A stretch of DNA of 64,000 bases, from contig CAWINI010000003.1 of NCBI GenBank assembly GCA_963837395.1, forward strand, positions 430,889-494,888, given 5' to 3'. Below are positions 37,830 through 56,307 of this stretch, piece by piece. Source of the DNA: an uncultured bacterium (GTDB lineage Bacteria > Acidobacteriota > HRBIN11 > JAKEFK01). Numbering within the stretch: position 1 is the first letter of the stretch; every line of letters starts with the position of its first letter. Below the pieces are notes generated by a model that saw only the letters and a list, made by a program, of their open reading frames with translations, ran no database searches and was not told the DNA's origin. The position numbers were made by a program, and so were the translations under genes.

Positions 37830-37858
37830 AAGCTTCACCACTCTCAAAATTGGGTATA

Positions 37859-38566
37859 ATGTATGGTTTTATGAGGACAACACGGCGGGAGCCGAAGACA
37901 AAGCGAGCAGCGGCAGCATTTTACGACCTTGATGGTACGCTGGTAAAAACGAACCTGGTACATGTCCTGTTTTTTCAAGCCCGTAATCAGCAAGGAATTT
38001 TGCGTAGCATCACCAAAACTGCCACAGTGATGTCAGCGGTTCCGGCTTTTCTGCTGACAGATGCTTACAGCCGTACCGCATTCCAGGAATTATTTTTCAA
38101 GATGTACAAAGGTGAATCGGAGGATCGTATCCGATTTTTGTCTGAAGAATTATTTGAAGATGTAATTCAACCTTCGATTTTTCCGGGTGCATACGATCTC
38201 ATTGAAAAATCACGCAGTCTCGGACTTCGCCAGGTCCTTGTTACTGGCGCGCTTGATACCACAGTTGCACCGCTTGCACGTCATTTGAAAATTGATGATT
38301 GGATCACGAACCGATTGGAATTTGTTGACGGATTTGCTACAGGCCGATTGTTGCCGCCAGTAATGGCGAATGCATCGAAAGCATCCTGGATCCGTTCGTA
38401 TGCCGAAAAAGAAGGATTGAGTTTGAGCGCAAGTTATTGTTATACAGATAGCATCAGTGATCTTCCGATGCTATCGGTGGTTGGACATCCCACAGCGGTT
38501 CATCCTGATTTTCGTTTGAAAAGCACTGCAATCTCCAGCCATTGGCCAATTTTAGATTTGAGGTAA
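37859..38566 (+). CDS. HAD-IB family hydrolase (phosphoserine-phosphatase-like).
   Basis: 'AAAFYDLDGTLVKTN', 'LVTGALD' and 'YTDSISDLPML'. The start was moved past the N-terminal extension that translates the repeat. TATAAT overlaps the ATG at 37859 and the next ATG is at 37871. Confidence 0.7.
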   Translation: MYGFMRTTRREPKTKRAAAAFYDLDGTLVKTNLVHVLFFQARNQQGILRSITKTATVMSAVPAFLLTDAYSRTAFQELFFKMYKGESEDRIRFLSEELFEDVIQPSIFPGAYDLIEKSRSLGLRQVLVTGALDTTVAPLARHLKIDDWITNRLEFVDGFATGRLLPPVMANASKASWIRSYAEKEGLSLSASYCYTDSISDLPMLSVVGHPTAVHPDFRLKSTAISSHWPILDLR

Positions 38567-38572: not shown

Positions 38573-39721
38573 ATGAGCCTTATACTTCGCCGCCGTCTTG
38601 AAGAAAACATTACTTATATTGACAGCGATTCTGAACCGCGAATTCTGCATAATGGTGAAGACTTTTTGTTGGAAGATTTGCCTGTTGGTACGCGCGTAAT
38701 TTACCCGAAATCCCCGATTGCTGGGTTGCCGAATCCTGAAGCTGCAATCCGTTATGCGTTAAATCGTCCTCTGGGATGTGATCCGCTTCATGCTCAACTC
38801 TTTCCAGGAATGAAAGTCACAATTGCGGTTGATGACATTAGTCTTCCTTTGCCTCCCATGAAAACTCCGGAAGTTCGCCAACAAATTCTGGAAATTGTTC
38901 TGGATATGTTAACCGGCCATGGCGTTGATGATATTCACATCATTGTCGCCAATTCTTTGCATAGAAAAATGACAGAACCGGAAATGAAGCGGATGGTTGG
39001 ATCAAAAATCCATAAAGCATATTACCCCGATCGTTATTACTGTCATGATGCTGAAGATCCTGAAGGGATGATCAATCTTGGCGAAACAAAACATCATGAA
39101 GTGGTAAATATGAATCGCCGCGCGGCCGACAGTGATCTTGTTATCTACATCAACATCAATTTAGTTCCGATGGATGGCGGCCATAAATCGGTAACTGTCG
39201 GATTATGCGATTACGAAAGTCTGCGCCCTCATCATGAACCGCAAACTATTATCGATTCTGATAGTTACATGGATCCGGCGCGTTCTGAGCTCAGCCGCAA
39301 ATGCGAACGGATGGGCAAAATTGTTGATCAACACATGAATGTGTTTCACATTGAAACGGCATTGAACAACGATATGTTTCTTGGCCCGATGGGTTTCTTG
39401 AACAAGAATGAAGATAACTTCACGGACGCTGATTGGGCGATGTTTAATCTTACAAAAGCAACGCTGGAAAAACTTCCGCGCAATGCAAAACGGAAAATGT
39501 TTTTCCAAATTCCATCCAATTACAAAATGATCGGTTGTTATGCCGGAAAGACTGAGTTGGTGCACGAAAAAATTTTGCAGCATTGTTTTGAGCAATACGC
39601 TGTTCCGGTAAAGAATCAGGCCGATATTTTGATCACCGGAATTCCATACATTTCTCCGTACAATGTGAATTCTATTTTGAATCCTGTTTTGGTTCAGGTG
39701 ATGGGCCGGTTATTTCTTTAA
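38573..39721 (+). CDS. LarA-like (DUF2088) nickel-dependent racemase/epimerase family protein, N-terminal part.
   Basis: Weak resemblance only. Conserved His/Lys-rich core '[14 protein letters not shown]' and '[10 protein letters not shown]'. It is continued out of frame by 39723..40166. Confidence 0.4.
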
Positions 39722-39722
39722 C

Positions 39723-40166
39723 ATGTACAGGAATAAACCTGTGGTGAAAAAAGGTGGAGTCCTGATTTTGACTCATCCCTGTTATGACGAATTTGATCCC
39801 AATTTCCATCCGAGTTATATCGAATTTTTTCACCGCTTATTACCGGAAACGAAAGATAGTTTTGAATTGCGCGAAAAATATGAACAGGAATTTGCGCATG
39901 ATCCGAATTACATCCAGATGTATCGCCGCGGCAATGCATATCATGGCGCTCATCCTTTTTTCATGTGGTATTGGGCTGAAAATGGCAGGAAACATCTCAG
40001 CAAAATTATCGCTGTTGCCGGAAATTCATATGTTCCGGAAATGCTTGGATGGGAGCGTGCCTCAACATTAACGGAAGCGATTTACATGGCAAGAAGTCAT
40101 ATGGGACGCACCGCAGAAATTACCATGCTTCATCATCCACCGATTTTTATTTCGGATATGGAGTAA
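39723..40166 (+). CDS. Probable C-terminal continuation of the LarA-like gene after a frameshift.
   Basis: It starts 2 nt after the previous stop in a different frame. Confidence 0.35.
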
Positions 40167-40218: not shown

Positions 40219-41949
40219 ATGGCGCGGTTAGTGCTGAATCCGGGCCAAACAAATGAGCAGGTCTTTGATTTAAAAAAAGGACCAACCACTATCGGTCGGG
40301 CTAAAGAAAACGACATTGTCATTCTGGACGCAAGTCTGTCTCGCATGCACGCCCGTGTCGATGTAAATGGTGATCGGATCGTTTTAAGCGATCTGCAAAG
40401 CAGTAATGGCACTTTCGTAAATGGCGATCGGATCACGCACTGCGTCTTGAAACACGGCGATACAGTAATGTGCGGCGATGTTGCACTTCAGTTCCGTGAA
40501 GATCTCCACATCCTTCATGAAATTTCTTCAGGTGTTCGCAAAGGATTTGCAGAATTACTTGTAGTTGATAAACCGCGCGATAAGGTAAGTACCTCTGCGT
40601 TAAAAATCAAACAAAAAGATGCTCAGCAGAGATCAAAAGACAAACTTCAAATCCTGCTGGAAGTCAGCGAATTACTTTCCAATCCTGAAGAGATCGATGT
40701 TTTGCTTCAAAAAATTGTGGAATTTTTGTTCGTGATCATGGATGTAGATCGCGCTGCAATTCTGATGGTGAACGAAGAAACTGGAATTCTTGAGCCGCGC
40801 ATTACGAGATCCGGTGTTGAAGTGCATGAAGGTGAAACCATATACAGCCGCAGTATTGTAAATTATGTTTTGCAAAAAAATGTTTCAGTTATTTCATCCG
40901 ATGCACGCGAAGATCCGAGATTCGGAGACACAGGATCGATCATGCGCCAGTCAATTCGATCTTCCATCTGTGTACCTTTAAAAACCCGTGACAAAGTGAT
41001 CGGCGTTTTGTATGTGGATAATGTATCAGTACCGATGAGATTTATCGCAGAGGATCTGGAATTCTTAAGCGTATTTGGAAATCAAGCTGCGGTAGCAATT
41101 GAAAATTCTAAGCTGTACAACAAGATCGAAGAAGATGCCAGAGGCCGTGAGCAGGAATTAATGTCACTTGTGGAAGATCGTACGCGCAATCTGCAGGTCG
41201 AAAAAGAGAAAGCAGAAAAAGCGATGTCTGTAGCTGAAGAAGCAAATAAATTTAAAAGCCAATTCCTGGCCAACATGAGTCACGAATTGCGGACGCCATT
41301 AAATGCAATCATCGGTTACAGCGAAATGTTGCAAGAGGAAGCGGAAGAACTTGGCGTATCCGATTTAAATGGTGATTTGCAAAAAATTCAAGCTGCAGGA
41401 AAACATCTTCTGGCGCTGATCAATGACATTCTCGATCTATCAAAAATCGAAGCCGGCAAAATGGAATTGTTTCTGGAAAATTTCGGACTAACCGGATTAC
41501 TGGATGAAGTGGTCACAACAGTTCGGCCGCTGATGAAGAAAAACAACAACACATTGATATTTGAATCGAATCAAAACCTTGGTTCGATGCATGCGGATGT
41601 GACTCGTGTTCGCCAGGTATTGTTTAATTTGTTAAGCAATGCATCCAAGTTCACTAAAGATGGAAAAGTTTCGCTAGCAGTTGATAAGGGCACTGAAAAT
41701 GGTTCGGGATGGATTACTTTTCGCGTTTCTGATACCGGCATCGGAATGACATCGGAACAAGTGGGACGATTGTTCCAGGCATTTTCACAAGCGGATGCTT
41801 CTACCTCGCGCAAATATGGCGGTACAGGTTTAGGACTGGTAATCAGCCTGCGATTCTGCCAGATGATGGGCGGAACAATTACGGTAGAAAGTGAACCAAA
41901 TGCCGGCACCACGTTTACTGTAAAGCTTCCTGCACTGGTCTCTGTTTAA
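40219..41949 (+). CDS. FHA-GAF-histidine kinase.
   Basis: FHA 'TTIGRAKENDIVILDASLSRMHARV...SSNGTFVNG'. H-box 'SHELRTPLNAI'. G-box 'GGTGLGLVIS'. Confidence 0.88.
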   Translation: MARLVLNPGQTNEQVFDLKKGPTTIGRAKENDIVILDASLSRMHARVDVNGDRIVLSDLQSSNGTFVNGDRITHCVLKHGDTVMCGDVALQFREDLHILHEISSGVRKGFAELLVVDKPRDKVSTSALKIKQKDAQQRSKDKLQILLEVSELLSNPEEIDVLLQKIVEFLFVIMDVDRAAILMVNEETGILEPRITRSGVEVHEGETIYSRSIVNYVLQKNVSVISSDAREDPRFGDTGSIMRQSIRSSICVPLKTRDKVIGVLYVDNVSVPMRFIAEDLEFLSVFGNQAAVAIENSKLYNKIEEDARGREQELMSLVEDRTRNLQVEKEKAEKAMSVAEEANKFKSQFLANMSHELRTPLNAIIGYSEMLQEEAEELGVSDLNGDLQKIQAAGKHLLALINDILDLSKIEAGKMELFLENFGLTGLLDEVVTTVRPLMKKNNNTLIFESNQNLGSMHADVTRVRQVLFNLLSNASKFTKDGKVSLAVDKGTENGSGWITFRVSDTGIGMTSEQVGRLFQAFSQADASTSRKYGGTGLGLVISLRFCQMMGGTITVESEPNAGTTFTVKLPALVSV

Positions 41950-42981: not shown

Positions 42982-43060
42982 AATCGTACTCAAACTCGTA
43001 CTCTTAATCTTACTCGGAGGATTACGAGTACGAGTACGATTACGAGTACGAGTACGAGTA
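42982..43060 (+). repeat. Hexamer-repeat hairpin element, copy B, ending 7 nt before the ATG at 43068.
   Basis: aatcgtactcaaactcgtactcttaatcttactcg, loop gagg, attacgagtacgagtacgattacgagtacgagtacgagta. Confidence 0.8.
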
Positions 43061-43915: not shown

Positions 43916-45016
43916 ATGAGAATTTCCAAAGCTTTGGTATTGCTATTGATCTTATTCCCTTATTTATTCTTCGCTCAGACTCAAACAAAAAATGCGGCCG
44001 AATATGTTTGCCCACCTTGTGGATGTTCAAACGATGATAAAGTTTTTAATGCTCCTGGAAGTTGCCCAGTTTGCGGAATGCAACTTGTTCCCAAACAACA
44101 AAACCAGGAACAACAACAGTCTATGAAAGCAGCAATCCTTATTTTCGATGGTGTACAGATTATCGATTTCACCGGACCTTATGAAGTTCTGGGTCAAGCC
44201 GGAATTGATGCTTTCACGGTTGGAGAAAAAGCAAATCCAATTCGAACAACCATGGGAATGACAGTCACGCCTACGTATACATTTGAAAACGCTCCACCTG
44301 CTCAACTTCTGATCGTTCCCGGCGGCGATGTACAAACCCAAAATAAAAACATCATTCAATGGATTCAGCAAAGAGCGAAATCTGCTGATTATGTTCTTTC
44401 CGTTTGTAATGGAGCTTTTTATCTTGCAGAAGCAGGATTGCTGGATGGCCGCGATGCTACAACGTTTTACAATTTGATTGATGACCTACAAAAAACTTAC
44501 CCGAAGGTACATGTTGTAACAAACAAACGTTATGTGGATAACGGCAAAATCATCACATCTGCTGGATTGTCATCAGGCATCGATGGAACCCTGTATTTAA
44601 TCTCAAAGATTCATGGAAAAGGAATCGCGCAACAAGTTGCTCTGAACATGGAATACAACTGGCAGCCAGGATCTACTTATGCGCGTGCGGATTTCGCGGA
44701 CAAATATTTGCGCCGGATGACGAATCGCAGGCTTCAACTTGAAATTCCAAATCAAGTGGACGCGAAGGTGGTGAATACCCATGGCAGTGACGATCAGTGG
44801 GAAGCAGAATGGGAACTTCAGGCGAATTCCAGTATGCCTGAAATCAAAAACTATTTGGAAGACAAGCTTCAAGGACTTGGCAAATGGTCACGTGACGGTT
44901 CGGGTTGGAAATTTACTGGAGATAATGGAGAAAAATGGGCCGGGAATCTGAATGTCACTCCGATTGATGGCAAACAGAATTTTTATTTGATCAACCTAAA
45001 AATTCACAAGATTTAG
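43916..45016 (+). CDS. Exported DJ-1/PfpI-family protein with an N-terminal Cys-rich metal-binding motif and an extra C-terminal domain.
   Basis: Signal peptide 'ALVLLLILFPYLFFAQT'. 'CPPCGCSNDD...CPVCGM'. DJ-1 core 'LSVCNGAFYLAEAGLLDG'. SD gaggag precedes the internal ATG. Confidence 0.7.
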   Translation: MRISKALVLLLILFPYLFFAQTQTKNAAEYVCPPCGCSNDDKVFNAPGSCPVCGMQLVPKQQNQEQQQSMKAAILIFDGVQIIDFTGPYEVLGQAGIDAFTVGEKANPIRTTMGMTVTPTYTFENAPPAQLLIVPGGDVQTQNKNIIQWIQQRAKSADYVLSVCNGAFYLAEAGLLDGRDATTFYNLIDDLQKTYPKVHVVTNKRYVDNGKIITSAGLSSGIDGTLYLISKIHGKGIAQQVALNMEYNWQPGSTYARADFADKYLRRMTNRRLQLEIPNQVDAKVVNTHGSDDQWEAEWELQANSSMPEIKNYLEDKLQGLGKWSRDGSGWKFTGDNGEKWAGNLNVTPIDGKQNFYLINLKIHKI

Positions 45017-45076
45017 CTCAGTTTAAAACCGCGTTTGGTCGGAATATTATAGAGAACATACCAACAGGAGTTCTCT

Positions 45077-46216
45077 ATGGCCTACACACAAACCAAGTTT
45101 CGCCCTTTCTTGATCGGCATGGCGGTCGGTGTGGCCGTCATGTTTATTTTGTGGCGTCCATCATTGGATCGCGTCAGTAGCAATCCTCAAAACTTAAAAG
45201 ATGATGGTCCCAGTCCAACGGCGATTTTATTAGCTCAGTCTCCGGATTTATTGCCTGATGAAAAAAATACGGTTGCTGTTTTCCAGGAAAATGCACCATC
45301 TGTAGTTTTCATCACCAACAGAGGATTACAACAAGATATCTTTACGTTAAATGAGACTGAGATTCCGCAAGGTGCCGGAAGCGGATTCATCTGGGATAAA
45401 CAAGGACATGTCGTTACAAATTATCATGTCATTCAAAATGCACATTCATTAAGCGTTAAACTCAACGATCAAAAAACGTTTGAAGCTGAGATTGTTGGTT
45501 CGGAACCGAATAAAGATATTGCAGTAGTCCGGATCAAAGCTCCTGATAATGAGTTGAAAGCAGTACAGCCTGGAGCTTCTGACAAATTGCTCACCGGACA
45601 AAAAGTAATTGCAATTGGAAATCCATTTGGTTTGGATCAAACATTAACAGTTGGTGTTGTTAGTGCAGTAGGCCGTGAAATTCAATCAGTGACGAATCGC
45701 ACGATCCGCGATGTGATTCAAACTGATGCTGCAATCAATCCAGGAAACAGTGGTGAACCGTTGTTGGATGCGCATGGACGTTTGATTGGAATGAATACGG
45801 CGATTGTCAGCCCCAGTGGTGCTTATGCCGGAATCGGATTTGCTGTGCCTGTAAACACGATAAAGAGTATCGTGCCCGAATTAATCCAACATGGCAAAAT
45901 TGTTCGTCCTGGACTTGGAATTAACATATTGCCGGATCAAATCGCGGAAAATGCAGGTATTGAAGGAGTGGTTGTTGCAACTGTTGTGAAAGGTGGAGCT
46001 GCCGATCAAGCCGGACTGAAAGGGATTAAACGCACGTTTTTTGGAGAAACGGAAGTTGGCGATGTTATTACTGCTGTTGATGGGAAAAAAGTGAAAACAG
46101 CAGATGAGTTAGCAACGGAACTAGAGAGTCACAAGATTGGTGATGAAGTAACGATCACGTATCAGCGGGATGGCAAAGAACAAAAAGCGAAGATCCGTTT
46201 GCAAGAAATTGGGTAG
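45077..46216 (+). CDS. HtrA/DegP-family serine protease with a PDZ domain.
   Basis: 'GSGFIWDKQGHVVTNYHVI', 'GNSGEPLLD' and a PDZ domain. Confidence 0.88.
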   Translation: MAYTQTKFRPFLIGMAVGVAVMFILWRPSLDRVSSNPQNLKDDGPSPTAILLAQSPDLLPDEKNTVAVFQENAPSVVFITNRGLQQDIFTLNETEIPQGAGSGFIWDKQGHVVTNYHVIQNAHSLSVKLNDQKTFEAEIVGSEPNKDIAVVRIKAPDNELKAVQPGASDKLLTGQKVIAIGNPFGLDQTLTVGVVSAVGREIQSVTNRTIRDVIQTDAAINPGNSGEPLLDAHGRLIGMNTAIVSPSGAYAGIGFAVPVNTIKSIVPELIQHGKIVRPGLGINILPDQIAENAGIEGVVVATVVKGGAADQAGLKGIKRTFFGETEVGDVITAVDGKKVKTADELATELESHKIGDEVTITYQRDGKEQKAKIRLQEIG

Positions 46217-46218
46217 TA

Positions 46219-46283
46219 TGTAGTGGCGAGCGGAAGCTCGCCTATTCAATTTTGTCGAGGGCGACCTTCCGGTCGCCCCTACT
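46219..46283. repeat. Second copy of the nested palindrome TAGTGGCGAGCGGAAGCTCGCC...GGCGACCTTCCGGTCGCCCCTACTA.
   Basis: Same family as 28786..28845. Confidence 0.75.
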
Positions 46284-46291
46284 AGCGCACA

Positions 46292-46300
46292 TGTTATAAT
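46292..46300 (+). promoter_or_regulatory. Extended -10 (TGTTATAAT) ending 7 nt before the ATG at 46308, a candidate leaderless promoter for the ElbD-like gene.
   Basis: TGnTATAAT is read directly. No SD lies between it and the ATG. Confidence 0.4.
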
Positions 46301-46307
46301 TTCTCCC

Positions 46308-49300
46308 ATGCGAATTTCCCCCTCCTGGATCTTTCGAGGCCGAAACATTTTCTTCGTCGGCGGAACAGGTTTCCTGGGCAAAGTTACTCTCAGCACGCTG
46401 CTCGAGAGATTTCCAGACATTGGCAAAATTTATTTGATGGTTCGGGCTGGCTCAGGAGACGATAGTGAGGAACGATTTTGGAATAATGTTTTTACGTCCC
46501 CGGCTTTCGATCCCATTCGCGAACGTTATGGCGATCAAGTTAAATCATACCTGAGCGAAAAGCTGATTATTGTTGGCGGCGACATCACACACGATAACCT
46601 CGGCTACACCGAAGAACAAGCTCAGAAAATTGCCAGTGACATTGATCTTGTTCTGAATTCATCCGGTAACGTTAGTTTTAATCCTCCGCTGGAAACAGCG
46701 ATGAAAACGAATGTTACCGGCACCAAGAATTTGCTGGCATTTGTAAAACGGATGAAACGTCCGGCGTTTGTTCATACCAGCACATGTTTTGTTGCTGGAA
46801 ATCGAAAAGGTCAAATCTGGGAAGACGATCCAGTGATTGGATATTTTCCGCGCCGCGATGAATTAACAGAGGTAACGTTTTCAGTTGAACAAGAGCTGAA
46901 AGATTCTGAACGTTTAACTCGAAACATTGTTGAAGAAGCGGAGGATGCAACTTTAAACGCTGAATTCAGATCGACCGCGCGCAAACGTTTGATTGAAGAA
47001 GGTCGTGATCCTGATGAAGGCAATACATTAAATTTAGCCGCAGCACGCGAACGAAAAGATTGGATTCGCAATAAAATGAGCGATCTTGGATTGCAACGCG
47101 CGCAATGGTGGGGCTGGCCCAATATTTATACCTACACCAAGAGCATGGCAGAACAATTAATTGCTGCTGAAACTGGAATCGCTCGCGCTATCGTTCGGCC
47201 TGCAATTGTAGAAAGCTCAGTCTCGTATCCATTTCCGGGTTGGAATGAAGGCTTCAATACTACTGCCCCTCTGATTTTGTTTGCATTAAATGGACAAAGC
47301 ATTTATCCACTTAATCAAAATGTGATTCTCGACATTATTCCAGTTGATTACGTTGCATCTGCAATGCTCAGTGTCGCAGCACAAACGATTGTTGAACAAC
47401 CAAGACTTGTTTATCAGCTTTGTTCTGGCGATAGCAATCCGATCAAACTCAGAAGAATCGTTACGCTGCTTGGTCTTTATAAGCGCTCCTATTTTCAAGA
47501 TAAAAAAACCGGTAACCGTTTCTTGAACGCAATTGCTGCACGGATGGAAGCCAGTGCAGTTGAAGATGCACCATTCAGAAAGATTGTTCCGCGATTACGC
47601 GATGCAGTGGAAGAAATTTCAAAATCGTTAGCCAAAACGAAATCATATGGCGTGTTAAGTGGAATAAAAGGGCAACTCAAAAAAGGCGCCGATCATGCTG
47701 AAGCATTTTTGCATGAAGGACTTGAAGCATACGAACAATTTCGTCCATTCACAGTCTTGAACGATTATCATTTCCGCGCTGATAATGTCCGAGCGTTGTT
47801 CGAACGTATGCCTGATGAAGATCGGCAGATTTTAACCTGGGCTCCTGAAACACTCGATTGGTATCATTACTGGCTGAAAATTCACTTTCCTGGTTTGAAC
47901 CGTTGGGTATTTCCAAAAATGGAAGAAATTGGAAAGCCCAAACCAAAGCGTGTTTATACCTACCGCACACTTGTTGAATTGTTTGATTCCGTAACAAAGC
48001 TACATGCGGATCGGATCGGAATGCGGATCGAACGCGATGGAAAGCTTGAAGAATACACTTACGCCGATTTGCGCGAATTAATTCTGCACTGTGCCGCATT
48101 TCTGCGGGGTCATAGCATTGGCGCTGATGATCATGTTGCATTAATTGCTGAAAATTCTCCGGAGTGGGGAATCAGCTATTTCGGTATTATCCGCGCAGGC
48201 GCAACGTCCATTCCAATGGACAAAGATTTAACAACAGATGAAATTGTAAATCTGATCCGCGCGGGAAATGCAAAAGCAATTATTGTTAGCAATAAAATCC
48301 GCCGCAAACATTCAAAGTTAGAAAAGAAGCTGCAAGATCTAAATCTGAAAGTTCATCTATGGACATTTGATGATGTTTTTGCGCTGGGTGATGAGCAAAC
48401 TGAAAAAGAGCAGATTGCACAACTTCCAAAAGCCAGACCAGGAGCGATCGCATCTTTAATATTCACATCAGGCACAACCGGTCATCCGAAGGGCGTCATG
48501 CTGACGCAAAAAAATCTGACCAGCATGATGTCCCAATTGTTGAAGGTTTATGATGTTACAAAGGAAGACGGATTTTTAAGTATCCTTCCTTTGCATCATA
48601 CATTCGAATTTTCTACAGGGTTTTTGCTTCCATTCAGCCGCGGATCGCAAATTACCTACTTGCAAGAATTGACCGGTGATTCAATTTCCGATGCGTTTAA
48701 AACCAGCCATGTCACGATGATGGTTGGCGTTCCAGCACTTTGGGATTTATTGCGCAGACGGATCTTAAACAAATTCGGTGATAAATCGAAAAAACTTGAA
48801 GGCTTCGTGAAGTCTCTGATCAGTGTGAATCGCTGGATTCGTGAAAAAACTTCTCTGAATGTCGGACCATTCTTATTCTTCCCTGTTCATCATGGATTAG
48901 GCGGCCGCATCCGATATCTCATCAGTGGTGGTTCATCATTATCAGAAAAGACGTACGACACTTTTTATGGTTTGGGATTCTCGCTGAATGAAGGTTACGG
49001 ACTAACCGAAAGCTCACCGGTGCTGACTGTCACCCGGCCCGGAGCAAAACCAAAAATCGGAAGTGTTGGTGAAGCCTTGCCTGGCGTGGAAATTAGAATT
49101 TTGAATGCGAATGAAAAAGGTGTAGGCGAAGTGATTGCGCGCGGTCCAAATATCATGTCTGGCTATTATGAAAATAAGGAAGCAACCGAAACAACCATCA
49201 TCGATGGATGGCTTCATACCGGTGATCTTGGATACGTAGATGAAGACGGCAATTTGTTTTTGGTAGGCCGATCAAAAGATCTGATCTTAGGTCCAAGTGG

Positions 49301-50687
49301 AAAAAATATTTATCCTGATGAATTAGAAGATCTGTACCGCGATTCACCTTACGTTAAGGAAATGAGCATTGTTGGTTTGCCTGATCAAAATGGAGAGCGG
49401 ATCGCGTGTCTTGTTGTTCCTGATCATGAACATGATGAATCGCTTTCCCATGATCAGGTTCGCAGGAAAATTGAAGAACACTTCCGAAAGATTGCAGCCG
49501 GACTCCCGGTTTGGAAACGCGTAACAACTCTGGAATTTCAGGATGATGATTTGCCCAAAACCGGAACACGAAAAGTAAAACGGCGTGAAGTGATTTCGAT
49601 ACTGCAAGAACTTCATCGAAAAATTCCTGCCGCACCATTGGAACTTCCGGCATCTTCAGAATTTCAGGCACTCACCGAAATCATTAGTTCTGTTTGCGGT
49701 AAACCAATTTCCGAAATTCACCGAGATACAACATTCGATGAACTGGGATTTGATAGCTTGATGTACACCGAACTCGGTGCAGCTATTGAACATTCAGGCC
49801 GAACACTGCCATCGTTCGAAGCATTAAGTTCGATCACAACGGTCAGACATCTCGCTGATTTCTTGCACGTCTCTTCCAGAACTCATACGGTGGAAAAATC
49901 TACGACACCTGATGAAATTGAAGCGGAAAAGGAAGCTTCATTGCCTTCGTCATTAGGAGACCTTGGCGGAGCTGCCCTGGATTACATGAACGATGTCTTT
50001 TATGACTCCTACATGAAAGCTGAAATCATCGGAAATCAAAATGTACCGGTCCATACCAATTTTATTGTTGCGCCAAATCATAGCTCTCATCTTGATACAG
50101 GATTGGTAAAGAAAGCGCTGGGCGATGCAGGCCAAAATCTCGCGGCGCTTGCTGCAAAAGATTATTTCTTCAACAACAAACTGAAACGAACCTTCTTCGA
50201 AAATTTTACGAATCTGGTTCCGATGGAACGCGAAGGTTCAATTCATGAATCTTTAAAACTCGCAGTTCAAACTTTGCAGAAAGGATTTAATCTTTTGATC
50301 TTCCCTGAAGGCACACGATCGAAGACCGGACAAATATCGGAATTCAAATCCAGTTTGGGTTACCTGGCACTTCGAGCTAAGCGAGGAATTCTACCAATTC
50401 ATCTGAGTGGAACTTTTGATGCGATGCCGAAAGGTACAAAGTTTCCGAAAAAGAAAAAGGTAAAAGCGGTGATTGGTCCATTCCTTTCGTATGAATCGCT
50501 GGAGAAATTGGTTGAAGGCTTACCTCGCAATGATGCGAACCGGTTAATAACTTTGCTGGTCGAACAAATGGTGCGCAAGTTGAAAAATGGTCAAATTCAA
50601 ATGCCTGATTTGAAAGCGGTGCGGCAACAATGGGATCACGAAAACCAGCCCAAGCTTCATGAAAACGCATCCGCATTAGGCGATTAG
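46308..50687 (+). CDS. Four-domain lipid-biosynthesis megaenzyme: fatty-acyl reductase (NAD_binding_4), long-chain acyl-AMP/CoA ligase, acyl carrier protein, and 1-acylglycerol-3-phosphate acyltransferase (ElbD-like).
   Basis: 'FFVGGTGFLGK...YTYTK' (reductase). 'TSGTTGHPKGVMLT' and 'GYGLTES' (AMP-binding). 'LGFDSLMYTE' (PP-binding Ser). 'NHSSHLDTG' and 'FPEGTRS' (AGPAT HX4D). Confidence 0.85.
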   Translation: MRISPSWIFRGRNIFFVGGTGFLGKVTLSTLLERFPDIGKIYLMVRAGSGDDSEERFWNNVFTSPAFDPIRERYGDQVKSYLSEKLIIVGGDITHDNLGYTEEQAQKIASDIDLVLNSSGNVSFNPPLETAMKTNVTGTKNLLAFVKRMKRPAFVHTSTCFVAGNRKGQIWEDDPVIGYFPRRDELTEVTFSVEQELKDSERLTRNIVEEAEDATLNAEFRSTARKRLIEEGRDPDEGNTLNLAAARERKDWIRNKMSDLGLQRAQWWGWPNIYTYTKSMAEQLIAAETGIARAIVRPAIVESSVSYPFPGWNEGFNTTAPLILFALNGQSIYPLNQNVILDIIPVDYVASAMLSVAAQTIVEQPRLVYQLCSGDSNPIKLRRIVTLLGLYKRSYFQDKKTGNRFLNAIAARMEASAVEDAPFRKIVPRLRDAVEEISKSLAKTKSYGVLSGIKGQLKKGADHAEAFLHEGLEAYEQFRPFTVLNDYHFRADNVRALFERMPDEDRQILTWAPETLDWYHYWLKIHFPGLNRWVFPKMEEIGKPKPKRVYTYRTLVELFDSVTKLHADRIGMRIERDGKLEEYTYADLRELILHCAAFLRGHSIGADDHVALIAENSPEWGISYFGIIRAGATSIPMDKDLTTDEIVNLIRAGNAKAIIVSNKIRRKHSKLEKKLQDLNLKVHLWTFDDVFALGDEQTEKEQIAQLPKARPGAIASLIFTSGTTGHPKGVMLTQKNLTSMMSQLLKVYDVTKEDGFLSILPLHHTFEFSTGFLLPFSRGSQITYLQELTGDSISDAFKTSHVTMMVGVPALWDLLRRRILNKFGDKSKKLEGFVKSLISVNRWIREKTSLNVGPFLFFPVHHGLGGRIRYLISGGSSLSEKTYDTFYGLGFSLNEGYGLTESSPVLTVTRPGAKPKIGSVGEALPGVEIRILNANEKGVGEVIARGPNIMSGYYENKEATETTIIDGWLHTGDLGYVDEDGNLFLVGRSKDLILGPSGKNIYPDELEDLYRDSPYVKEMSIVGLPDQNGERIACLVVPDHEHDESLSHDQVRRKIEEHFRKIAAGLPVWKRVTTLEFQDDDLPKTGTRKVKRREVISILQELHRKIPAAPLELPASSEFQALTEIISSVCGKPISEIHRDTTFDELGFDSLMYTELGAAIEHSGRTLPSFEALSSITTVRHLADFLHVSSRTHTVEKSTTPDEIEAEKEASLPSSLGDLGGAALDYMNDVFYDSYMKAEIIGNQNVPVHTNFIVAPNHSSHLDTGLVKKALGDAGQNLAALAAKDYFFNNKLKRTFFENFTNLVPMEREGSIHESLKLAVQTLQKGFNLLIFPEGTRSKTGQISEFKSSLGYLALRAKRGILPIHLSGTFDAMPKGTKFPKKKKVKAVIGPFLSYESLEKLVEGLPRNDANRLITLLVEQMVRKLKNGQIQMPDLKAVRQQWDHENQPKLHENASALGD

Positions 50688-51701
50688 ATGCAACCGCAGA
50701 AACGCAAAGTTTTGGTGACCGGCGGGACCGGTTTTCTGGGCAAACATTTACTCGATTATCTAAAGCTCAAAAAAGAAAAGAATGTCAGGGTGCTGACAAC
50801 ATCTGCGCCTTCGTGGTTAGAAGATAGTGGATTTGAAATCATAGAAGGTTCGATCACCTCGCCGGATATCGTAAAAGTTGCAGTCGAAAACGTTCAGCAA
50901 ATTTATCACCTCGCGGGCAAAGTTTCGCGCACGAAAGAAGATCCGCGCGACATGCATGCAAGCCATGTTGATGGAACGCGTTTACTTTGTGAAGCGGCGA
51001 AAGCAGCAGGAGTTCAGCGCATGGTATTAGCTTCCAGCAGCGGAACAATTGCAGTCACTGAAGATGGCTTTGAAATTCCCGATGAATCATGGCCCACACC
51101 GGTAGAAATCATCACAAAATTTCCATATTACTCCAGCAAGTGGTATCAAGAACGAACAGCAATTAAATCCTGTGGTGATGCGTTTGAGCTGATCATTTTG
51201 AATCCCAGCTTACTTCTCGGACCTGGAGATGAACGCTTGAGTTCGACTCAGGATGTTTTGAAATTCATCGCTGGTGATATTCCAGCGATTCCATCCGGTG
51301 GAATTAATTTTGTTGATGTCCGTGACGCCGCTGCAGCATTTCACACTGCGATGCAGCGCGGCAAACCAGGTGAGCGCTATTTATTGGGCGGACCGAATTG
51401 GACTCTGGATAAATTTTTCGGACACCTTGAGCGGATCACAAAAGTAAAAGCACCACGAATTAAAGTTCATAAAAAGCTGCACTCGGTCACATCGAAATTA
51501 ATTGAAGGTGTATTTGAAGGAATCGGAAAAGAGCCGCCAGTAGAGCCAGTCAGTATGGAGATGTCGCGTTACTTCTGGTATGTCGATTCTTCTAAAGCAA
51601 AACGGGAGCTTGGTTTTGTATCACGCGATCCGGGCGAAACGCTATTTGATACGGTGGAATATCTTCGCAAAAATTTCTTAGGCGCAGGCATCTTCAAGTA
51701 A
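50688..51701 (+). CDS. NAD-dependent epimerase/dehydratase (extended SDR).
   Basis: 'VLVTGGTGFLGKHL'. Its start abuts the stop of the ElbD-like gene (TAGATG). Confidence 0.8.
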   Translation: MQPQKRKVLVTGGTGFLGKHLLDYLKLKKEKNVRVLTTSAPSWLEDSGFEIIEGSITSPDIVKVAVENVQQIYHLAGKVSRTKEDPRDMHASHVDGTRLLCEAAKAAGVQRMVLASSSGTIAVTEDGFEIPDESWPTPVEIITKFPYYSSKWYQERTAIKSCGDAFELIILNPSLLLGPGDERLSSTQDVLKFIAGDIPAIPSGGINFVDVRDAAAAFHTAMQRGKPGERYLLGGPNWTLDKFFGHLERITKVKAPRIKVHKKLHSVTSKLIEGVFEGIGKEPPVEPVSMEMSRYFWYVDSSKAKRELGFVSRDPGETLFDTVEYLRKNFLGAGIFK

Positions 51702-51726
51702 AATTTACCGCAAAGGCGCAAAACAC

Positions 51727-52653
51727 TTAACTTCGTATTTGCAAAGCTTCTGGCAATAATTCGATCGTTGCTGGCAACCGGCCGGGCGCTTCACCATCAA
51801 CTTCAATCAACACAGGATCACTTCCATTCACCGGCGTCGCTTCAATGCGAGTGCCAAGAGTGAAACCAACTTTATCAATTTTCAAATGCGTTCCGGAATA
51901 AAGACGATACGACTTCGTTAGTTTTTCTACCATACTCAAATCGCCAATCATCACCACATCAAAATATCCGTCATTCAGTTTTGCATCAGGGGCAATCTTC
52001 ATTCCCCCGCCCCAATATTTCCCATTCGCAACGCAAACGGATGCAACCTTCATGCGCCGCTTTTCCTGCTGATCAATTTGCAGATACACATCGGAATTTG
52101 AATCAGCCAGTGTACTTCTTAAAGTAGCCGCAGCAAAAGTTAAACGTCCACCTAACAATTTCTTGGAAGATTCATTCGCCCGGATTGCAACACCGCCGCT
52201 CATCCCAAATGAAGCTGTATTCACAAAATAACGTATAGCTTCTTTGCCTTCGTTATCTAAAAAACGGATACGGCCTGCATCGACCCGCCGTAATGTTCCT
52301 TCACGCAATTGGCGAGCTGCTTTGCTTAAATCTTTAGGAAGATTCAGGCTGCGGCAAAAATCTCCGCCTGTTCCATGCGGCAAAATTCCAAGTTCCACCG
52401 ATTTTCCTGAGCACAATATTCCTGTTGATACTTCAGAAATTGTGCCATCCCCTCCCATTGCTACAATTAGTTTTCTTCCTTGGTTCGCTTCTTTTTCAGC
52501 AATGCGGATAGCATCACCTGAATCGCGGGTAAATTCAAAATCAAATGGGCCAAGATTGTTGTGAATTTGCAACGTGATCGATGCCCATTTTTTTTCGGTG
52601 AGACCACGCCCCGATTTCGGATTCACAATAATAAAAGGAAGATTGTCATTCAT
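51727..52653 (-). CDS. Diacylglycerol-kinase-family lipid kinase (YegS/BmrU-like).
   Basis: DAGK_cat 'IVAMGGDGTISEV'. Confidence 0.75.
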   Translation of the reverse strand: MNDNLPFIIVNPKSGRGLTEKKWASITLQIHNNLGPFDFEFTRDSGDAIRIAEKEANQGRKLIVAMGGDGTISEVSTGILCSGKSVELGILPHGTGGDFCRSLNLPKDLSKAARQLREGTLRRVDAGRIRFLDNEGKEAIRYFVNTASFGMSGGVAIRANESSKKLLGGRLTFAAATLRSTLADSNSDVYLQIDQQEKRRMKVASVCVANGKYWGGGMKIAPDAKLNDGYFDVVMIGDLSMVEKLTKSYRLYSGTHLKIDKVGFTLGTRIEATPVNGSDPVLIEVDGEAPGRLPATIELLPEALQIRS

Positions 52654-53398
52654 GAGATTTAACGACCAGTTTATCTAAAATCGAAACATATCGTGGATCA
52701 GATCTGATCGAATCGAACTCCGGAGAATATGGAAGATAAAGAAGGACATTTTTCTCTTGATATGCCTTTTCAAGTTCCTCAAAAAATCGATCCATTTGAT
52801 TGAGTCCCAAATATGCACGCGCAAAATTCAATGGTGCAACATATTCGGTGCGGCTTCGATCCTTCATTTGAGCAAGAAGTTCTTCCGCTTCATGTGTAGA
52901 TCCAAATTTCGCATAAGCCATTGCTAAATATGCAATGAAAAACGTGCCGCCTTGTGAAATATCAACAGCGCGTTTAAAAAAATTGATCGACTGCTCCGGC
53001 ATCTCTTTATTCATAAACGCCATGCCGGAAAACCAGATAGCTAACAAAAATTGCGGTTCAATTTCCAGTGCTTTGTTGAGTTCTTGAAGCGCTCTATCGT
53101 AGCGTCGATCACCGTAGTAATGCATTCCAGCAAAAGACGAATAGAGTGGATTCAATGGATCCAATTCTTGTGCCTTTTGGATCGCTTTCGCAGCCTCTTC
53201 ATGCCGGCCACCCCATGTCAAAAATCCGCTGTACCAGCAATATCCAAATGCAAATTGAGGATTCAATTCCAACGCTCTTTTCATTGCCTTCTCACCGCGA
53301 ATCCAATCAGCATCAAAATACAAAAGAGCAGCTCCCAATGATAAATGACCTTCAGGCAAAAGCGGATCGATCTGCAGCGCTTTTTCGGCAGCTTCCAT
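52646..53398 (-). CDS. TPR-repeat C-terminal region of the Ser/Thr kinase gene, after a frameshift.
   Basis: TPR units. The frame extends upstream as 'DPNYALAHAGIADAFSTLGF...' to about 53500. Confidence 0.6.
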   Translation of the reverse strand: MEAAEKALQIDPLLPEGHLSLGAALLYFDADWIRGEKAMKRALELNPQFAFGYCWYSGFLTWGGRHEEAAKAIQKAQELDPLNPLYSSFAGMHYYGDRRYDRALQELNKALEIEPQFLLAIWFSGMAFMNKEMPEQSINFFKRAVDISQGGTFFIAYLAMAYAKFGSTHEAEELLAQMKDRSRTEYVAPLNFARAYLGLNQMDRFFEELEKAYQEKNVLLYLPYSPEFDSIRSDPRYVSILDKLVVKSHE

Positions 53399-54981
53399 CG
53401 CTTTAGGATAAGCTTCCAGCGGTGGAATAAAGGTATAAAAACCCAGGGTTGAAAAAGCGTCCGCAATGCCAGCGTGAGCCAGCGCATAATTTGGTCCTTA
53501 TCGATTGCTTGTTGAAAATATTCAATCGATTTATTGAGTCCGGCATGTGTTCTGAATTTCCAAAAATGTCTGCCTTTCAAATAGAGGTTATATGCTTCGA
53601 TGTTATCTGTATAACGCCGCACTAATTTTGGGAAAAGTTGATCGAGCCGGTCATATGATTCACTGAGATCTTTTTCTAAGCCTTGATCGGCCGCACCCAC
53701 AAGTTTTAAATGCAAAGTTTGTACGATCGTGCGCGCCATTTCGTCCTGGATGAAAAAAATATCTTCCATGTCACGATCATATTTTTCAGACCACAGATGA
53801 TAACCATCCGCCGTATTAATCAATTCCGCGGTAATGCGAAGTCTATTTCCTGATTTACGGACACTTCCATCCAAGATTGTTTCTACGTTGAGCTGTCTTC
53901 CTATTTCGCGAATATCTGCTTGATGCTTCTTGTATTGAAACGCAGAAGTTCTGGATGCAACACGCAAATCTTGAATCTTCGTTAATGCCGTGATCAGCTC
54001 TTCAGCAAGTCCATCGCAAAAATACTCATGATCTTTTTGCGGACTCATATCTATGAACGGAAGTACTGCAATTGAATGAGCAAGGACATCTGATTTTGTT
54101 CTTATTTGCTCTTTGCTGCTTTGCAAAAATAGATTTGCCTCAATCATTCGTAACGCAAACGTCAAATCGCGCGCAGATTGAAAACGGTTAGATGGATTCT
54201 TTTCCAGGCAGTGCGCGAGTACATGAAGCAACTCGGCAGGAACCTTATTCTTCAGTTCATTGTAATCGGCTTCATCTCTTAAAATGGCGCTCATTAGATC
54301 AGCCGAAGATCCGCCGGTAAACGGCCTTTTGCCGGCTAACATTTCATATAAGAGAGCACCAAACGAAAAGATATCGGAACGCGCATCGACTTCCTGCGTA
54401 CGTACCTGTTCCGGCGACATATATGCAACCGTTCCCAGCAGTATTCCAGGGTCAGTATTTGGAGTGGTAGGAAGCTGAGAAGCGGTTTGATTCGGTTCGA
54501 CTTTGCGTAACTTAGCTAATCCGAAATCCAGAATTTTGATAATCCCATCGCGAGTTACAAAAATGTTTTCCGGTTTTAAATCACGATGAATGATTCCTCG
54601 TTCATGCGCAGCTGCCAGTCCTGAAGAAATCTGTACAGCATAATGTACTGCTGACCGTGCTGATAGTTGTTCATGCATCATCAATGAACGAAGAGTTTCG
54701 CCTACGAGCAATTCAACAATGATATAAGCGATTTGATCCTGAACTCCGAAATCATAAATCGCCAGAATATTCGGATGGCTTAATGCTCCTTGCGCCCGTG
54801 CTTCTTGTTCGAAGCGCCGCATCCGTTCTTCATCTTCAGCAAAATCAGATGGCAGAATTTTTACAGCGACGTCACGCAGCAAACGTGTATCAGTCGCACG
54901 AAAGACTTCACCCATCCCGCCGGCTCCGAGCTGCGCCAGGATTTCGTACGGACCAAGACGGTCACCAATCTGAATCTTCAT
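53281..54981 (-). CDS. Ser/Thr protein kinase (Hanks-type) with a regulatory domain. The last roughly 70 aa in the track are out-of-frame read-through.
   Basis: 'LGAGGMGEVFRA', 'VAVKIL', 'HRDLKPENI', 'DFGLA' and 'SPEQ'. Confidence 0.8.
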   Translation of the reverse strand: MKIQIGDRLGPYEILAQLGAGGMGEVFRATDTRLLRDVAVKILPSDFAEDEERMRRFEQEARAQGALSHPNILAIYDFGVQDQIAYIIVELLVGETLRSLMMHEQLSARSAVHYAVQISSGLAAAHERGIIHRDLKPENIFVTRDGIIKILDFGLAKLRKVEPNQTASQLPTTPNTDPGILLGTVAYMSPEQVRTQEVDARSDIFSFGALLYEMLAGKRPFTGGSSADLMSAILRDEADYNELKNKVPAELLHVLAHCLEKNPSNRFQSARDLTFALRMIEANLFLQSSKEQIRTKSDVLAHSIAVLPFIDMSPQKDHEYFCDGLAEELITALTKIQDLRVASRTSAFQYKKHQADIREIGRQLNVETILDGSVRKSGNRLRITAELINTADGYHLWSEKYDRDMEDIFFIQDEMARTIVQTLHLKLVGAADQGLEKDLSESYDRLDQLFPKLVRRYTDNIEAYNLYLKGRHFWKFRTHAGLNKSIEYFQQAIDKDQIMRWLTLALRTLFQPWVFIPLFHRWKLILKRWKLPKKRCRSIRFCLKVIYHWELLFCILMLIGFAVRRQ

Positions 54982-55553
54982 TGCATCGGCTCTAAATCAT
55001 AATAATGATCATTAAAAAAGTAATTGATCCGCTTGATTGCAAATTTTCCATGAATCCGTTTCCAAAAGCCGGGAGCATCGGAAGCCGAAACCTTGACGAA
55101 TTCGCCATGGGTATACATGCCATCACCAAAAATCACTTCATAGCTGTCCAGGAATTTCCAGCCTGCAGATTTTCGATTCGGGCCAATACCCACTTGCTTA
55201 TCGCCGACTTTGAACTCAACAGTTTTACCGGCATCCCATTCCTTATATAAAGAAAACGGCTCATCCTCTACGTATTCGTTCAAAGTCTCACAAAAGCATT
55301 TTGGATTTTTGGTTCCTTCCACTTCTTCAAAAGCGACGTTTGCTTGTTGATTTTTCTTTGGCAAAGCCGCAAGAGATGGAAGAATCACAACACCGAAATC
55401 GCCTTCCTTACTGGAAAAAAACCATTCGCCTGACGCTGCAAGATTCTTGCGGTAAACGGTTGTTCCTGATGCTTCGGCATATTGAATCTGAAAAGTCTCT
55501 TTTGAAGAAAAAGGGCGGTAAGCTATTTCCCTGGTTCGATTTCTCGCCAGCAC
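54978..55553 (-). CDS. Hypothetical protein, probably continuous with 55408..55866 (a secreted N-terminus) through a frameshift.
   Basis: Overlapping ORFs in different frames. Signal peptide on the upstream piece. Confidence 0.4.
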   Translation of the reverse strand: MLARNRTREIAYRPFSSKETFQIQYAEASGTTVYRKNLAASGEWFFSSKEGDFGVVILPSLAALPKKNQQANVAFEEVEGTKNPKCFCETLNEYVEDEPFSLYKEWDAGKTVEFKVGDKQVGIGPNRKSAGWKFLDSYEVIFGDGMYTHGEFVKVSASDAPGFWKRIHGKFAIKRINYFFNDHYYDLEPMQ

Positions 55554-55866
55554 GCAAATAACCTTCTGATACTGAAATAGATGTCTGGGTCTGTTTTAAA
55601 GGATCGTAAAGGTATTCATCAATATCTTTATCAAAATGGATGGCCCCATAAAGGGGTTGAATCAAAGAAATTGAATCTTCGCAAGGTTGATCAGGATCGA
55701 TTTCAAGCAGAACGATCGGCGCATCGGTTGAATTTACAATTTCAAATTTGAAATTTGAAAGGTGTCCGATGGTGGCAGATTCGACAGGCTTTATACTCAT
55801 TTGCAAATCTTCGGCTTCTGCGAATGCCGCAAGAATTACCACAAAAACACTAAGTAATCGGATCAT
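55408..55866 (-). CDS. Secreted hypothetical N-terminal fragment.
   Basis: 'LLSVFVVILAAFAEA' signal. Confidence 0.4.
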   Translation of the reverse strand: MIRLLSVFVVILAAFAEAEDLQMSIKPVESATIGHLSNFKFEIVNSTDAPIVLLEIDPDQPCEDSISLIQPLYGAIHFDKDIDEYLYDPLKQTQTSISVSEGYLRAGEKSNQGNSLPPFFFKRDFSDSICRSIRNNRLPQESCSVRRMVFFQ

Positions 55867-55918
55867 TGGAATTCATTGTACGCTGGAATCAATCCCGTCA
55901 TAAACCTATACTGAAATT

Positions 55919-56203
55919 GTGAAAATGTTGCGGATCGGTTTCGGAAATGCAGTAGTAGCCTCAAGGGTACGGAAGATTTTATCTCTGAAAACGCCAGCAG
56001 GACGCCGCTGGCAACAAGAAGCTGATGAAATCGGAAAATTGATCGATGCAACCGCGGGCAGACACACCCGTACGGTTTTAATTACCGATAGCGGTCATAT
56101 CATCTTGTCATCCCTGACATCGGAAATGTTAAAGGAACGCTGGAAAGTGTTGACAGAGGAAGCTGAAGAATCTTTTATTGACAAAGACGAGGGCGTCCAA
56201 TAA
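55919..56203 (+). CDS. RemA/DUF370-family protein.
   Basis: 'GFGNAV...LIDATAGRHTRTVLITDSGHIILS' matches the RemA core (GFGN, IDAT.GRRTR, DS.H). Confidence 0.7.
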   Translation: MKMLRIGFGNAVVASRVRKILSLKTPAGRRWQQEADEIGKLIDATAGRHTRTVLITDSGHIILSSLTSEMLKERWKVLTEEAEESFIDKDEGVQ

Positions 56204-56239
56204 CATTTCCAATCGTTGTGCCCGTCGATAAATCCAGAG

Positions 56240-56262
56240 TTGGGCTAACCAAGTGCATTTCC
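56240..56262 (+). other. Perfect 9-bp-stem hairpin tcccctcctt-ggat-aaggagggga.
   Basis: Read directly. It contains the SD-like AAGGAGG. Confidence 0.5.
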
Positions 56263-56307
56263 CCTCCTTGGATAAGGAGGGGATTAAGGGGTGGTTGAAT
56301 CTAAAAA

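Follow-up and report, generated by a model that had tools for sequence, protein, structure and literature searches.

A probable elbD–elbE ether-lipid gene pair in an uncultured, low-G+C lineage of Acidobacteriota

The elb system and the locus compared with it

Bacterial alkyl ether lipids underlie the palaeoclimate proxies based on brGDGTs (branched forms of glycerol dialkyl glycerol tetraethers), and both their producers and the enzymes that form the ether bonds are still debated; the bacterial routes are, moreover, evolutionary relatives of eukaryotic plasmalogen synthesis. The first description of the elb system came from Myxococcus xanthus (Lorenzen et al. 2014; summaries in PMC9131029 and PMC13012113). 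Here, we analysed a 64,000-nt stretch of DNA from an uncultured bacterium (contig CAWINI010000003.1, assembly GCA_963837395.1; hereafter the window), which encodes a four-domain protein of 1459 aa, an abutting extended short-chain dehydrogenase/reductase (SDR) and a convergent lipid kinase. As judged from published architecture, operon structure and an intermediate homologue, the first two genes are likely orthologous to elbD and elbE, which form the core of the elb ether-lipid system of bacteria. The locus is best read as an intact copy of the published elbD–elbE set, correctly identified and not a new pathway, and it brings an intact set of elb genes from an acidobacterial lineage that is deep, uncultured and low in G+C.

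In M. xanthus, ElbD carries an N-terminal FAR1-like reductase, followed by acyl-CoA-synthetase, acyl carrier protein (ACP) and AGPAT-like domains, and elbE, encoding an NAD-dependent epimerase/dehydratase, lies immediately downstream (PMC9131029; PMC13012113). The elbB gene for a HAD-like phosphohydrolase is situated further upstream, and the function of elbC is unassigned (PMC9131029; PMC13012113). When elbD was deleted, alkyl and vinyl ether lipids fell strongly; in vitro work confirmed that ElbD has ligase and ACP activities, and an i15:0 aldehyde was found in the wild type and not in elbD mutants (PMC9131029). The ether-forming step is unassigned even in Myxococcus. Within the Acidobacteriota, several subdivision 4 genomes carry homologues of the elb operon as a whole (Sinninghe Damste et al. 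2018, as cited in PMC10087280, PMC11868695 and bioRxiv 10.64898/2026.06.23.733905), and the literature on cultured subdivision 4 isolates describes alkyl ether bonds and lipids in them. Diacylglycerol (DAG) kinase genes adjoining elbD have been noted in a study of sponge symbionts.

By Pfam, the 1459-aa protein of the window matches M. xanthus ElbD (MXAN_1528; ABF88003.1 / Q1DC43) in its four domains and in their order on one polypeptide, and the elbE-like gene follows immediately downstream. As in M. xanthus, the system also includes a HAD gene (elbB) and elbC. The first-pass annotation of this DNA had proposed, as a candidate ether-lipid pathway, an ElbD-like enzyme together with its coupled SDR and a lipid kinase close by, and domain order, motifs and neighbourhood all match elb. 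It had also described the N-terminal position of the reductase as a departure from ElbD, a difference that disappears on comparison, given that M. xanthus ElbD is FAR1-like at its N-terminus too (PMC9131029) and the order is identical. Nor does the pathway appear unusual for the organism, as had been suggested: the host is acidobacterial, and an elb pathway is to be expected in this phylum because at least 596 species genomes carry relatives of the protein and elb homologues, together with ether lipids, have been reported in subdivision 4.

With respect to M. xanthus, the window differs in its host (Acidobacteriota, 44% G+C), in the distance of about 6 kb between elbBC and elbDE, and in the linkage of a YegS-type kinase. 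In myxobacteria, elbD–elbE can be either clustered with elbB–elbC or unlinked from them (PMC9131029). No elbA homologue was identified in the window, which also lacks a CarF desaturase and AGPS; thus, alkyl ethers rather than plasmalogens would be expected. The subdivision 4 elb loci (Blastocatellia/Pyrinomonadaceae) share with the window the phylum, the HAD/LarA-like/ElbD/ElbE set, a full-length colinear ElbD (51-56% identical) and, often, a lipid kinase nearby on the opposite strand. In comparison with them, the window ElbD clade is separate and deeply branching, with 67-94% identity inside and at most 57% outside, and its split operon with a TATAAT at leaderless distance contrasts with the elbC–elbD junction of Pyrinomonadaceae, which is coupled through a Shine-Dalgarno (SD) sequence.

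Other fused enzymes share parts of this architecture. FARAT, a FAR–GNPAT fusion of M. xanthus (MXAN_1675), Tetrahymena and other protists that is dedicated to the first steps of ether-lipid synthesis, likewise joins an N-terminal FAR1-type reductase to a C-terminal glycerolipid acyltransferase (PMC13012113), but it lacks adenylation and ACP domains, uses acyl-CoA and works with AGPS, which is absent from the window locus. Carboxylic acid reductases (CARs; adenylation, peptidyl carrier and reductase domains) and the terminal reductases of non-ribosomal peptide synthetases (NRPSs) follow the same adenylate-tether-reduce logic and have a matching reductase fold, whereas the window reductase is N-terminal, of the FAR1/'male sterility' type with a FAR_C extension, and the protein carries a PlsC-type acyltransferase.

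The known picture of the pathway is unchanged by this locus, which makes the biochemistry no more testable than the cultured subdivision 4 loci do. Three modest new points come from the comparison: in more than 80 loci, ElbD–ElbE are regularly accompanied by a LarA-like gene and a YegS-type lipid kinase; the elb operon can be split; and elbDE, once split off, appears to gain a leaderless promoter of its own. The two companions and the candidate leaderless promoter described below are leads rather than discoveries.

Domains, conserved neighbourhood and host

The three genes were confirmed as open reading frames (ORFs) at 46308..50687 (plus strand, 1459 aa), 50688..51701 (plus strand, 337 aa) and 51727..52653 (minus strand, 308 aa). 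The four domains of the elbD homologue, together with the motifs named at first pass, were recovered by a Pfam HMM search and in the translation. The FAR1-type fatty-acyl reductase module (46359..47912, plus strand) consists of NAD_binding_4 (aa 18-353, E 1.4e-55), with G18xxG21xxG24 and Y274xxxK278, and a weak, sub-threshold Sterile/FAR_C match (aa 474-535). The acyl-AMP/acyl-CoA ligase, or adenylation, domain (48042..49574, plus strand) matches AMP-binding (aa 579-954, E 1.9e-74) and AMP-binding_C (aa 1005-1089), and retains TSGTTGHPKG at aa 720-729 and the A10 lysine K1089. The acyl carrier domain (49665..49865, plus strand; PP-binding, aa 1120-1186, E 7.8e-11) contains the phosphopantetheine serine S1150 within GFDSL, and the PlsC/AGPAT-type acyltransferase domain (50022..50405, plus strand; Acyltransferase, aa 1239-1366, E 1.2e-21) contains NHSSHLD, with H1258xxxxD1263, and FPEGTR at aa 1332-1337. 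Across 14 aligned homologues (53-85% identical), the catalytic motifs of all four domains, including G1147-L1151, are invariant.

Comparisons with structures in the PDB agree with these assignments. The best relative of the FAR module is the rice fatty acyl reductase DPW (7eoz; sequence E 7e-53), followed by thioester reductase domains of NRPSs, polyketide synthases (PKSs) and CARs. A predicted structure of the module, of moderate quality (pLDDT 65.7, pTM 0.66) and used only to confirm the FAR/thioester-reductase fold against the PDB, matched 7eoz with a Foldseek E of 4e-19 and a TM score of 0.53-0.63. The adenylation domain resembles long-chain and other acyl-CoA ligases, its PDB relatives being oxalyl-CoA ligases, FadD13 and 4-coumarate--CoA ligases, and the acyltransferase domain aligns to Thermotoga maritima PlsC (5kym) across both catalytic motifs (E 2.8e-14).

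The layout of the two neighbouring genes was likewise as first described. The ATG of the SDR gene (50688) directly follows the TAG of the elbD homologue (50685-50687), and the kinase gene is convergent, with a 25-nt spacer. The 337-aa protein is an extended SDR of the NAD-dependent epimerase/dehydratase, 3-beta-HSD-like type (Pfam Epimerase, E 1.3e-29, and 3Beta_HSD) and is the counterpart of ElbE. An identity as HpnA (TIGR03466) was rejected, its score of 224.2 bits lying below the cutoff of 367.65, and the protein is related to HpnA only. The 308-aa protein belongs to the YegS/Rv2252/BmrU lipid kinase family (TIGR00147, 162.7 bits against a curated cutoff of 118.65; DAGK_cat, E 2.3e-28; YegS_C, E 5.7e-30), which supports the DAG-kinase-family assignment made at first pass.

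The fusion of four domains is real. The first-pass annotation had named a chimeric mis-assembly within the ORF as a finding that would overturn it; we found none. An independent short-read contig from another data set (L001, Logan ERR11718635) aligns to positions 44941-56289 of the window (11.35 kb) with 99.97% identity and encodes the identical 1459-aa protein, and colinear homologues occur in hundreds of genomes, which together exclude a chimera. Relative to L001, the window contains two homopolymer indels (53493 and 55644), which are probably long-read consensus errors.

By sequence comparison, the host is a deep, uncultured lineage of Acidobacteriota of about 44% G+C, since the identities of both ElbD and Ffh drop sharply outside the clade. 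The exact 1459-aa protein falls in a protein cluster whose named members are 'Acidobacteriota bacterium'. The Ffh encoded in the window follows the same pattern as ElbD, with 79-100% identity within the clade and then 65% outside it; a search with Ffh recovered only the label 'Acidobacteriota bacterium' and no named class. The remainder of the window is ordinary chromosome (ffh, ftsY, a riboflavin operon, a bc-type complex and sensor kinases).

The ElbD family is conserved at full length in Acidobacteriota and Polyangia, as far as sequence and labels tell. Full-length relatives of the protein are encoded in at least 596 species-representative genomes, of whose loci the best 80 were retrieved, none of them from Myxococcus, and protein searches returned thousands of colinear full-length homologues (1450-1500 aa) with the same Pfam set. 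The closest relatives (67-94% identity) are labelled at most Acidobacteria, and the next tier (51-57%) comprises mostly metagenome-assembled genomes (MAGs) of Pyrinomonadaceae, Blastocatellia and Ca. Marinacidobacterales, with some Polyangia-labelled MAGs. One of the latter (L080, 64-70% G+C) shows the same layout of elbD, elbE and a convergent kinase; its ElbD is 51% identical to that of the window over 1470 aligned residues with 1% gaps, and its ElbE is 53% identical. A search seeded with the Polyangia homologue returned uncultured Polyangia/Myxococcales proteins only. Among its 120 top relatives, NAD_binding_4 and AMP-binding were found in 120/120, the acyltransferase in 118/120 and PP-binding in 103/120.

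The neighbourhood was counted in 84 related loci, the denominators being those with enough flanking sequence. An ElbE-like gene lies directly downstream on the same strand, within 800 nt, in 65/66 loci, a LarA-like gene directly upstream of ElbD in 65/70, and a HAD gene upstream of ElbD in 58/61; in most relatives, HAD, LarA-like, ElbD and ElbE genes are contiguous as one cluster. In 32/44 loci, among them MAGs of Polyangia and Ca. Marinacidobacterales, the opposite strand encodes a YegS-type kinase no more than 10 kb downstream of elbD, and in 18/54 the kinase follows immediately after ElbE.

In the window, the elbB- and elbC-like genes were located by searching with the HAD and Lar_N genes of L085, a 69%-identical relative in which this pair stands directly before the ElbD homologue. 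Both had been missed at first pass and lie on the elbD strand, about 6 kb upstream of elbD (37.8-40.2 kb). The elbB-like gene for a HAD-family phosphohydrolase (37871..38566, plus strand; PF12710, E 9.5e-33) encodes a protein 78% identical to that of the HAD gene two genes upstream of ElbD in L085, the alignment with which supports a start near 37871 instead of the mechanical start at 37757. The elbC-like gene of the LarA superfamily (38573..40166, plus strand; Lar_N, formerly DUF2088, E 1.4e-36) is broken into ORFs 38573..39721 and 39723..40166, which are 83-89% identical, in two frames, to the intact 531-aa gene of L085. At the frameshift (about 39704-39709), the window reads ATGGGCCGG where the related locus L084 reads ATGGGGCCCGG, that is, two contracted homopolymers (GGGGCCC to GGGCC); the break is probably a sequencing or consensus error and not a true pseudogene. 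A comparable break occurs in the Lar_N gene of L083, which stems from the same sequencing project as the window. Counterparts of elbB, elbC, elbD and elbE are all present in the window, and in this lineage about 6 kb of unrelated genes stand between elbBC and elbDE, as a split operon.

The promoter region of elbD

The start codon of elbD at 46308 is taken as unambiguous because an in-frame stop closely precedes it, the homologues match the N-terminus from their first residues on, and the nucleotide-binding glycines begin at residue 18. No SD motif precedes this ATG. Instead, an extended -10 box, TGTTATAAT, is located at 46292..46300 (plus strand), and its TATAAT hexamer (46295-46300) stops 7 nt short of the A of the ATG, which would place the start of transcription within a few nucleotides of the start codon. 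The window shares this perfect TATAAT, at 6-7 nt from the ATG, with L082, L083 and L084; the proteins of these four lineages are 70-89% identical and their upstream sequences are otherwise unrelated, and in all four elbD is not adjacent to elbC. In Pyrinomonadaceae loci where elbC abuts elbD, by contrast, a GGAG-type SD overlaps the elbC stop codon. Thus, when split from elbBC, elbDE appears to gain its own leaderless promoter.

An alternative is that elbD is read through from htrA or from a distant promoter and translated independently of an SD, the TATAAT being fortuitous or part of an AT-rich, unstructured region that aids initiation. This seems to us the less probable course of events, although it deserves serious consideration. 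SD-independent initiation does seem common, about two thirds of the window genes being without a recognisable SD, and a generic sigma-70 consensus scan did not call an elbD promoter, since there is no -35 element; the case for a promoter therefore rests on geometry and conservation. However, a perfect TATAAT kept at 6-7 nt in four lineages amid unrelated surroundings argues against read-through, as do two hairpins between htrA and elbD, the first of them terminator-like with a T-rich tail. Furthermore, both the window and L083 have a box of the extended TGn type, and an extended TGn -10 can act without a -35 element. Hence, an independent, leaderless elbDE mRNA is probable in the window clade. 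The leaderless promoter proposed at first pass stands on its spacing, on the missing SD and on the same geometry in L082, L083 and L084, which amounts to good comparative support and not to proof.

The two hairpins form a REP-like doublet (46218..46285) between the htrA stop and the elbD promoter, GC-rich and inverted with respect to each other (46225-46242 and 46260-46277). A terminator-like scan hit the first, which is followed by a T-rich run and looks like the htrA terminator. A second copy of the approximately 65-nt doublet lies at 28781-28846, with inverted ends TGTAGTGGCGACCGGAA ... TTCCGGTCGCCACTACA, and the 64-kb window contains 4 hairpin matches against 0.09 expected. The REP-adjacent position of elbD, as first annotated, is therefore genuine, the upstream palindromes being a repeated element present twice in the window. 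Within these 64 kb, it behaves as a REP/BIME-like element, an imperfect palindrome repeated between genes in inverted pairs. Among the fetched loci it was found only in L001, and those from other species do not carry it.

Proposed route and competing functions

Building on the genes and motifs described above, we infer the fate of the ACP-bound chain and the roles of ElbE, the HAD and LarA-like proteins and the kinase as follows. The adenylation domain would activate a long-chain fatty acid, probably iso-branched, and load it onto the ACP of the same protein; both activities were shown in vitro for M. xanthus ElbD in the literature. The N-terminal FAR1-type reductase would then release a fatty aldehyde or alcohol from the ACP-bound chain in an NAD(P)H-dependent reaction, and the C-terminal PlsC/GNPAT-like domain would esterify an acyl chain to a glycerol-phosphate or dihydroxyacetone phosphate (DHAP) acceptor. 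ElbE, translationally coupled to ElbD, could add another reductive step, acting for instance on a keto or hemiacetal intermediate. The elbB-like HAD phosphatase and the elbC-like LarA-like protein encoded 6 kb upstream would be part of the same system, and the convergent YegS-type kinase might plausibly re-phosphorylate an alkyl- or acyl-glycerol for phospholipid synthesis. The expected product would be a 1-O-alkyl glycerol lipid, with elbDE probably transcribed from its own promoter as a leaderless mRNA. The first-pass annotation had the enzyme activate a fatty acid, reduce it and transfer it to the acceptor. The relatives found for the single domains fit a reduce-and-acylate enzyme, but the four domains alone cannot transfer the reduced chain: an AGPAT domain transfers acyl groups.

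Several points weigh against reading the locus as the core of an ether-lipid system. To our knowledge, none of the four ElbD domains is a known ether-forming catalyst, and no genes for AGPS, PlsA/Ger or the radical-SAM proteins Tes/Mss were found in the window. The elbC-like copy is frameshifted in this assembly, probably through a sequencing error. Orthology to the characterised M. xanthus ElbD is judged indirectly, from architecture, operon and the Polyangia intermediate. In the literature, neither acyltransferase activity nor fatty alcohols were detected for M. xanthus ElbD in vitro (PMC9131029), ElbD and agps homologues of subdivision 4 have not been conclusively linked to acidobacterial ether lipids (PMC11868695), and Pontiella isolates with ElbD homologues yielded no detectable ether lipids (PMC11868695), so that an ElbD homologue alone does not prove the lipid.

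Some of these observations lend weight to the stronger of two rival functions, in which the enzyme would produce fatty aldehydes or alcohols in free form, or some other specialised lipid of a neutral or signalling kind (wax-ester-like, for instance, or an acyl-glycerol derivative), by CAR-style adenylation, loading and reduction in an NRPS-like cluster, and no membrane ether lipids. The Pontiella result would fit such a product, as would the M. xanthus data, in which an aldehyde is the only correlate observed and acyltransferase activity was not seen in vitro (PMC9131029). The FAR module is nearest to an alcohol-forming plant fatty acyl reductase and next to NRPS/PKS/CAR terminal thioester reductases, and in the sponge-symbiont study elb-like clusters are regarded as a diverse range of biosynthetic gene clusters whose products may differ. 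We nonetheless regard this function as unlikely, given that deletion of elbD in M. xanthus strongly cuts both alkyl and vinyl ether lipids (PMC9131029), that the PlsC motifs of the acyltransferase domain are fully conserved, that a HAD phosphatase and a lipid kinase are so closely linked to it, which speaks for glycerolipid chemistry, and that cultured subdivision 4 acidobacteria with the operon contain ether lipids.

It is very improbable that the adenylation, ACP and acyltransferase part acts like E. coli Aas (2-acyl-GPE acyltransferase / acyl-ACP synthetase) in lysophospholipid re-acylation or the recycling of exogenous fatty acids, with the reductase accessory or inactive: although Aas also joins an AMP-binding ligase to a PlsC-family acyltransferase in one polypeptide and partial NCBIfam matches were obtained, mainly in the ligase part, their scores (NF006386, 202 bits; NF005291, 175 bits) fall far under the curated cutoffs of 1221 and 1349, by which an identity as Aas was rejected, Aas has the opposite domain order and no built-in ACP or reductase, the GxxGxxG and YxxxK motifs are intact and invariant in all homologues examined, which indicates a selected catalytic role, and the conserved partners ElbE, HAD and LarA-like protein would have no place in an Aas-type cycle.

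The ether-lipid function thus remains the likely one, and within it the conserved elb member that is least well explained is the LarA-like partner. The literature gives M. xanthus ElbC as being of 'unknown function' (PMC9131029), and the LarA-superfamily match is that of the window gene. Searched against the PDB, the intact LarA-like protein of L085 has as its best relative 9q2u, an enzyme of the LarA-like nickel-pincer type (E 2e-31); a repaired ElbC fragment of 77 residues gave no matches there, an uninformative result. The ElbC-like protein keeps GGHK205 and then H221, with HH 15-16 residues past GGHK. This spacing is that of Lys184 and His200 of LarA, which we take to be the pair anchoring the nickel-pincer cofactor of lactate racemase. 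As ElbC retains a lysine and a histidine at this anchoring spacing, one may propose, as a distinctly speculative extension to which we assign a low probability, that the HAD phosphatase, LarA-like ElbC, ElbD, ElbE and YegS-type kinase would constitute a complete AGPS-independent route to 1-O-alkylglycerol lipids, in which the LarA-superfamily protein would carry out the missing ether-forming or redox-enabling step and the kinase would feed alkylglycerol into phospholipid synthesis. If true, such a route would assign a chemistry to the step that is open even in Myxococcus, and would bear on the ether bonds of acidobacterial brGDGT-type lipids.

Further observations concern the genes around the elb set. 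Just upstream of the HAD gene, relatives carry genes for a CDP-alcohol phosphatidyltransferase, a GtrA-like protein and a family-2 glycosyltransferase (L085, 5057-6930; L084, 4601-5638), and in the window a PMT_2-type glycosyltransferase (36246-37646) occupies this place; these may be head-group genes for the same lipids. The elbC-like gene is followed by an FHA-GAF-HisKA-HATPase sensor kinase gene in the window (40219-41949) and in L083 (5613-7345). The same kinase lies at the edge of L082 (1-1690), where any elbC would fall outside the fetched stretch. Between sensor kinase and elbD there is a variable insert (AraC, DJ-1/HMBD, HtrA and others), and the adjacency may reflect a regulatory link or mere synteny. 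Downstream, on the minus strand (51727-55553), the start of the lipid kinase gene overlaps by 8 nt the end of a Ser/Thr kinase-TPR gene, which in turn overlaps an ORF of 191 aa without a Pfam match. A missing G at 53493 splits this 778-aa Ser/Thr kinase-TPR gene into ORFs 52646..53398 and 53281..54981. The lipid kinase appears to be co-transcribed with the eukaryote-like protein kinase in the window strain, and not so in the 85%-identical relative L082.

Regarding translation starts elsewhere in the window, a TAnnnT box 6-7 nt before the start, without an SD, precedes five genes, elbD included (7558, minus; 7768, plus; 13928, minus; 35418, plus; 46308, plus). At the likely elbB start (37871), a TATAAT (37855-37860) ends 10 nt before it, outside the 6-7 nt range. 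An SD-like motif was recognised in only about one third of the window ORFs, and leaderless or SD-independent initiation may be common in this lineage. Finally, tandem hexamer arrays (GAGTAC/GAGTAA, about 6 copies) at 31425-31463, 43023-43060 and 62984-63019 lie directly 5' of the ATG of three genes unrelated to one another, which encode a multi-haem cytochrome c of 965 aa, an AraC regulator and a Rieske ring-hydroxylating oxygenase (minus strand).

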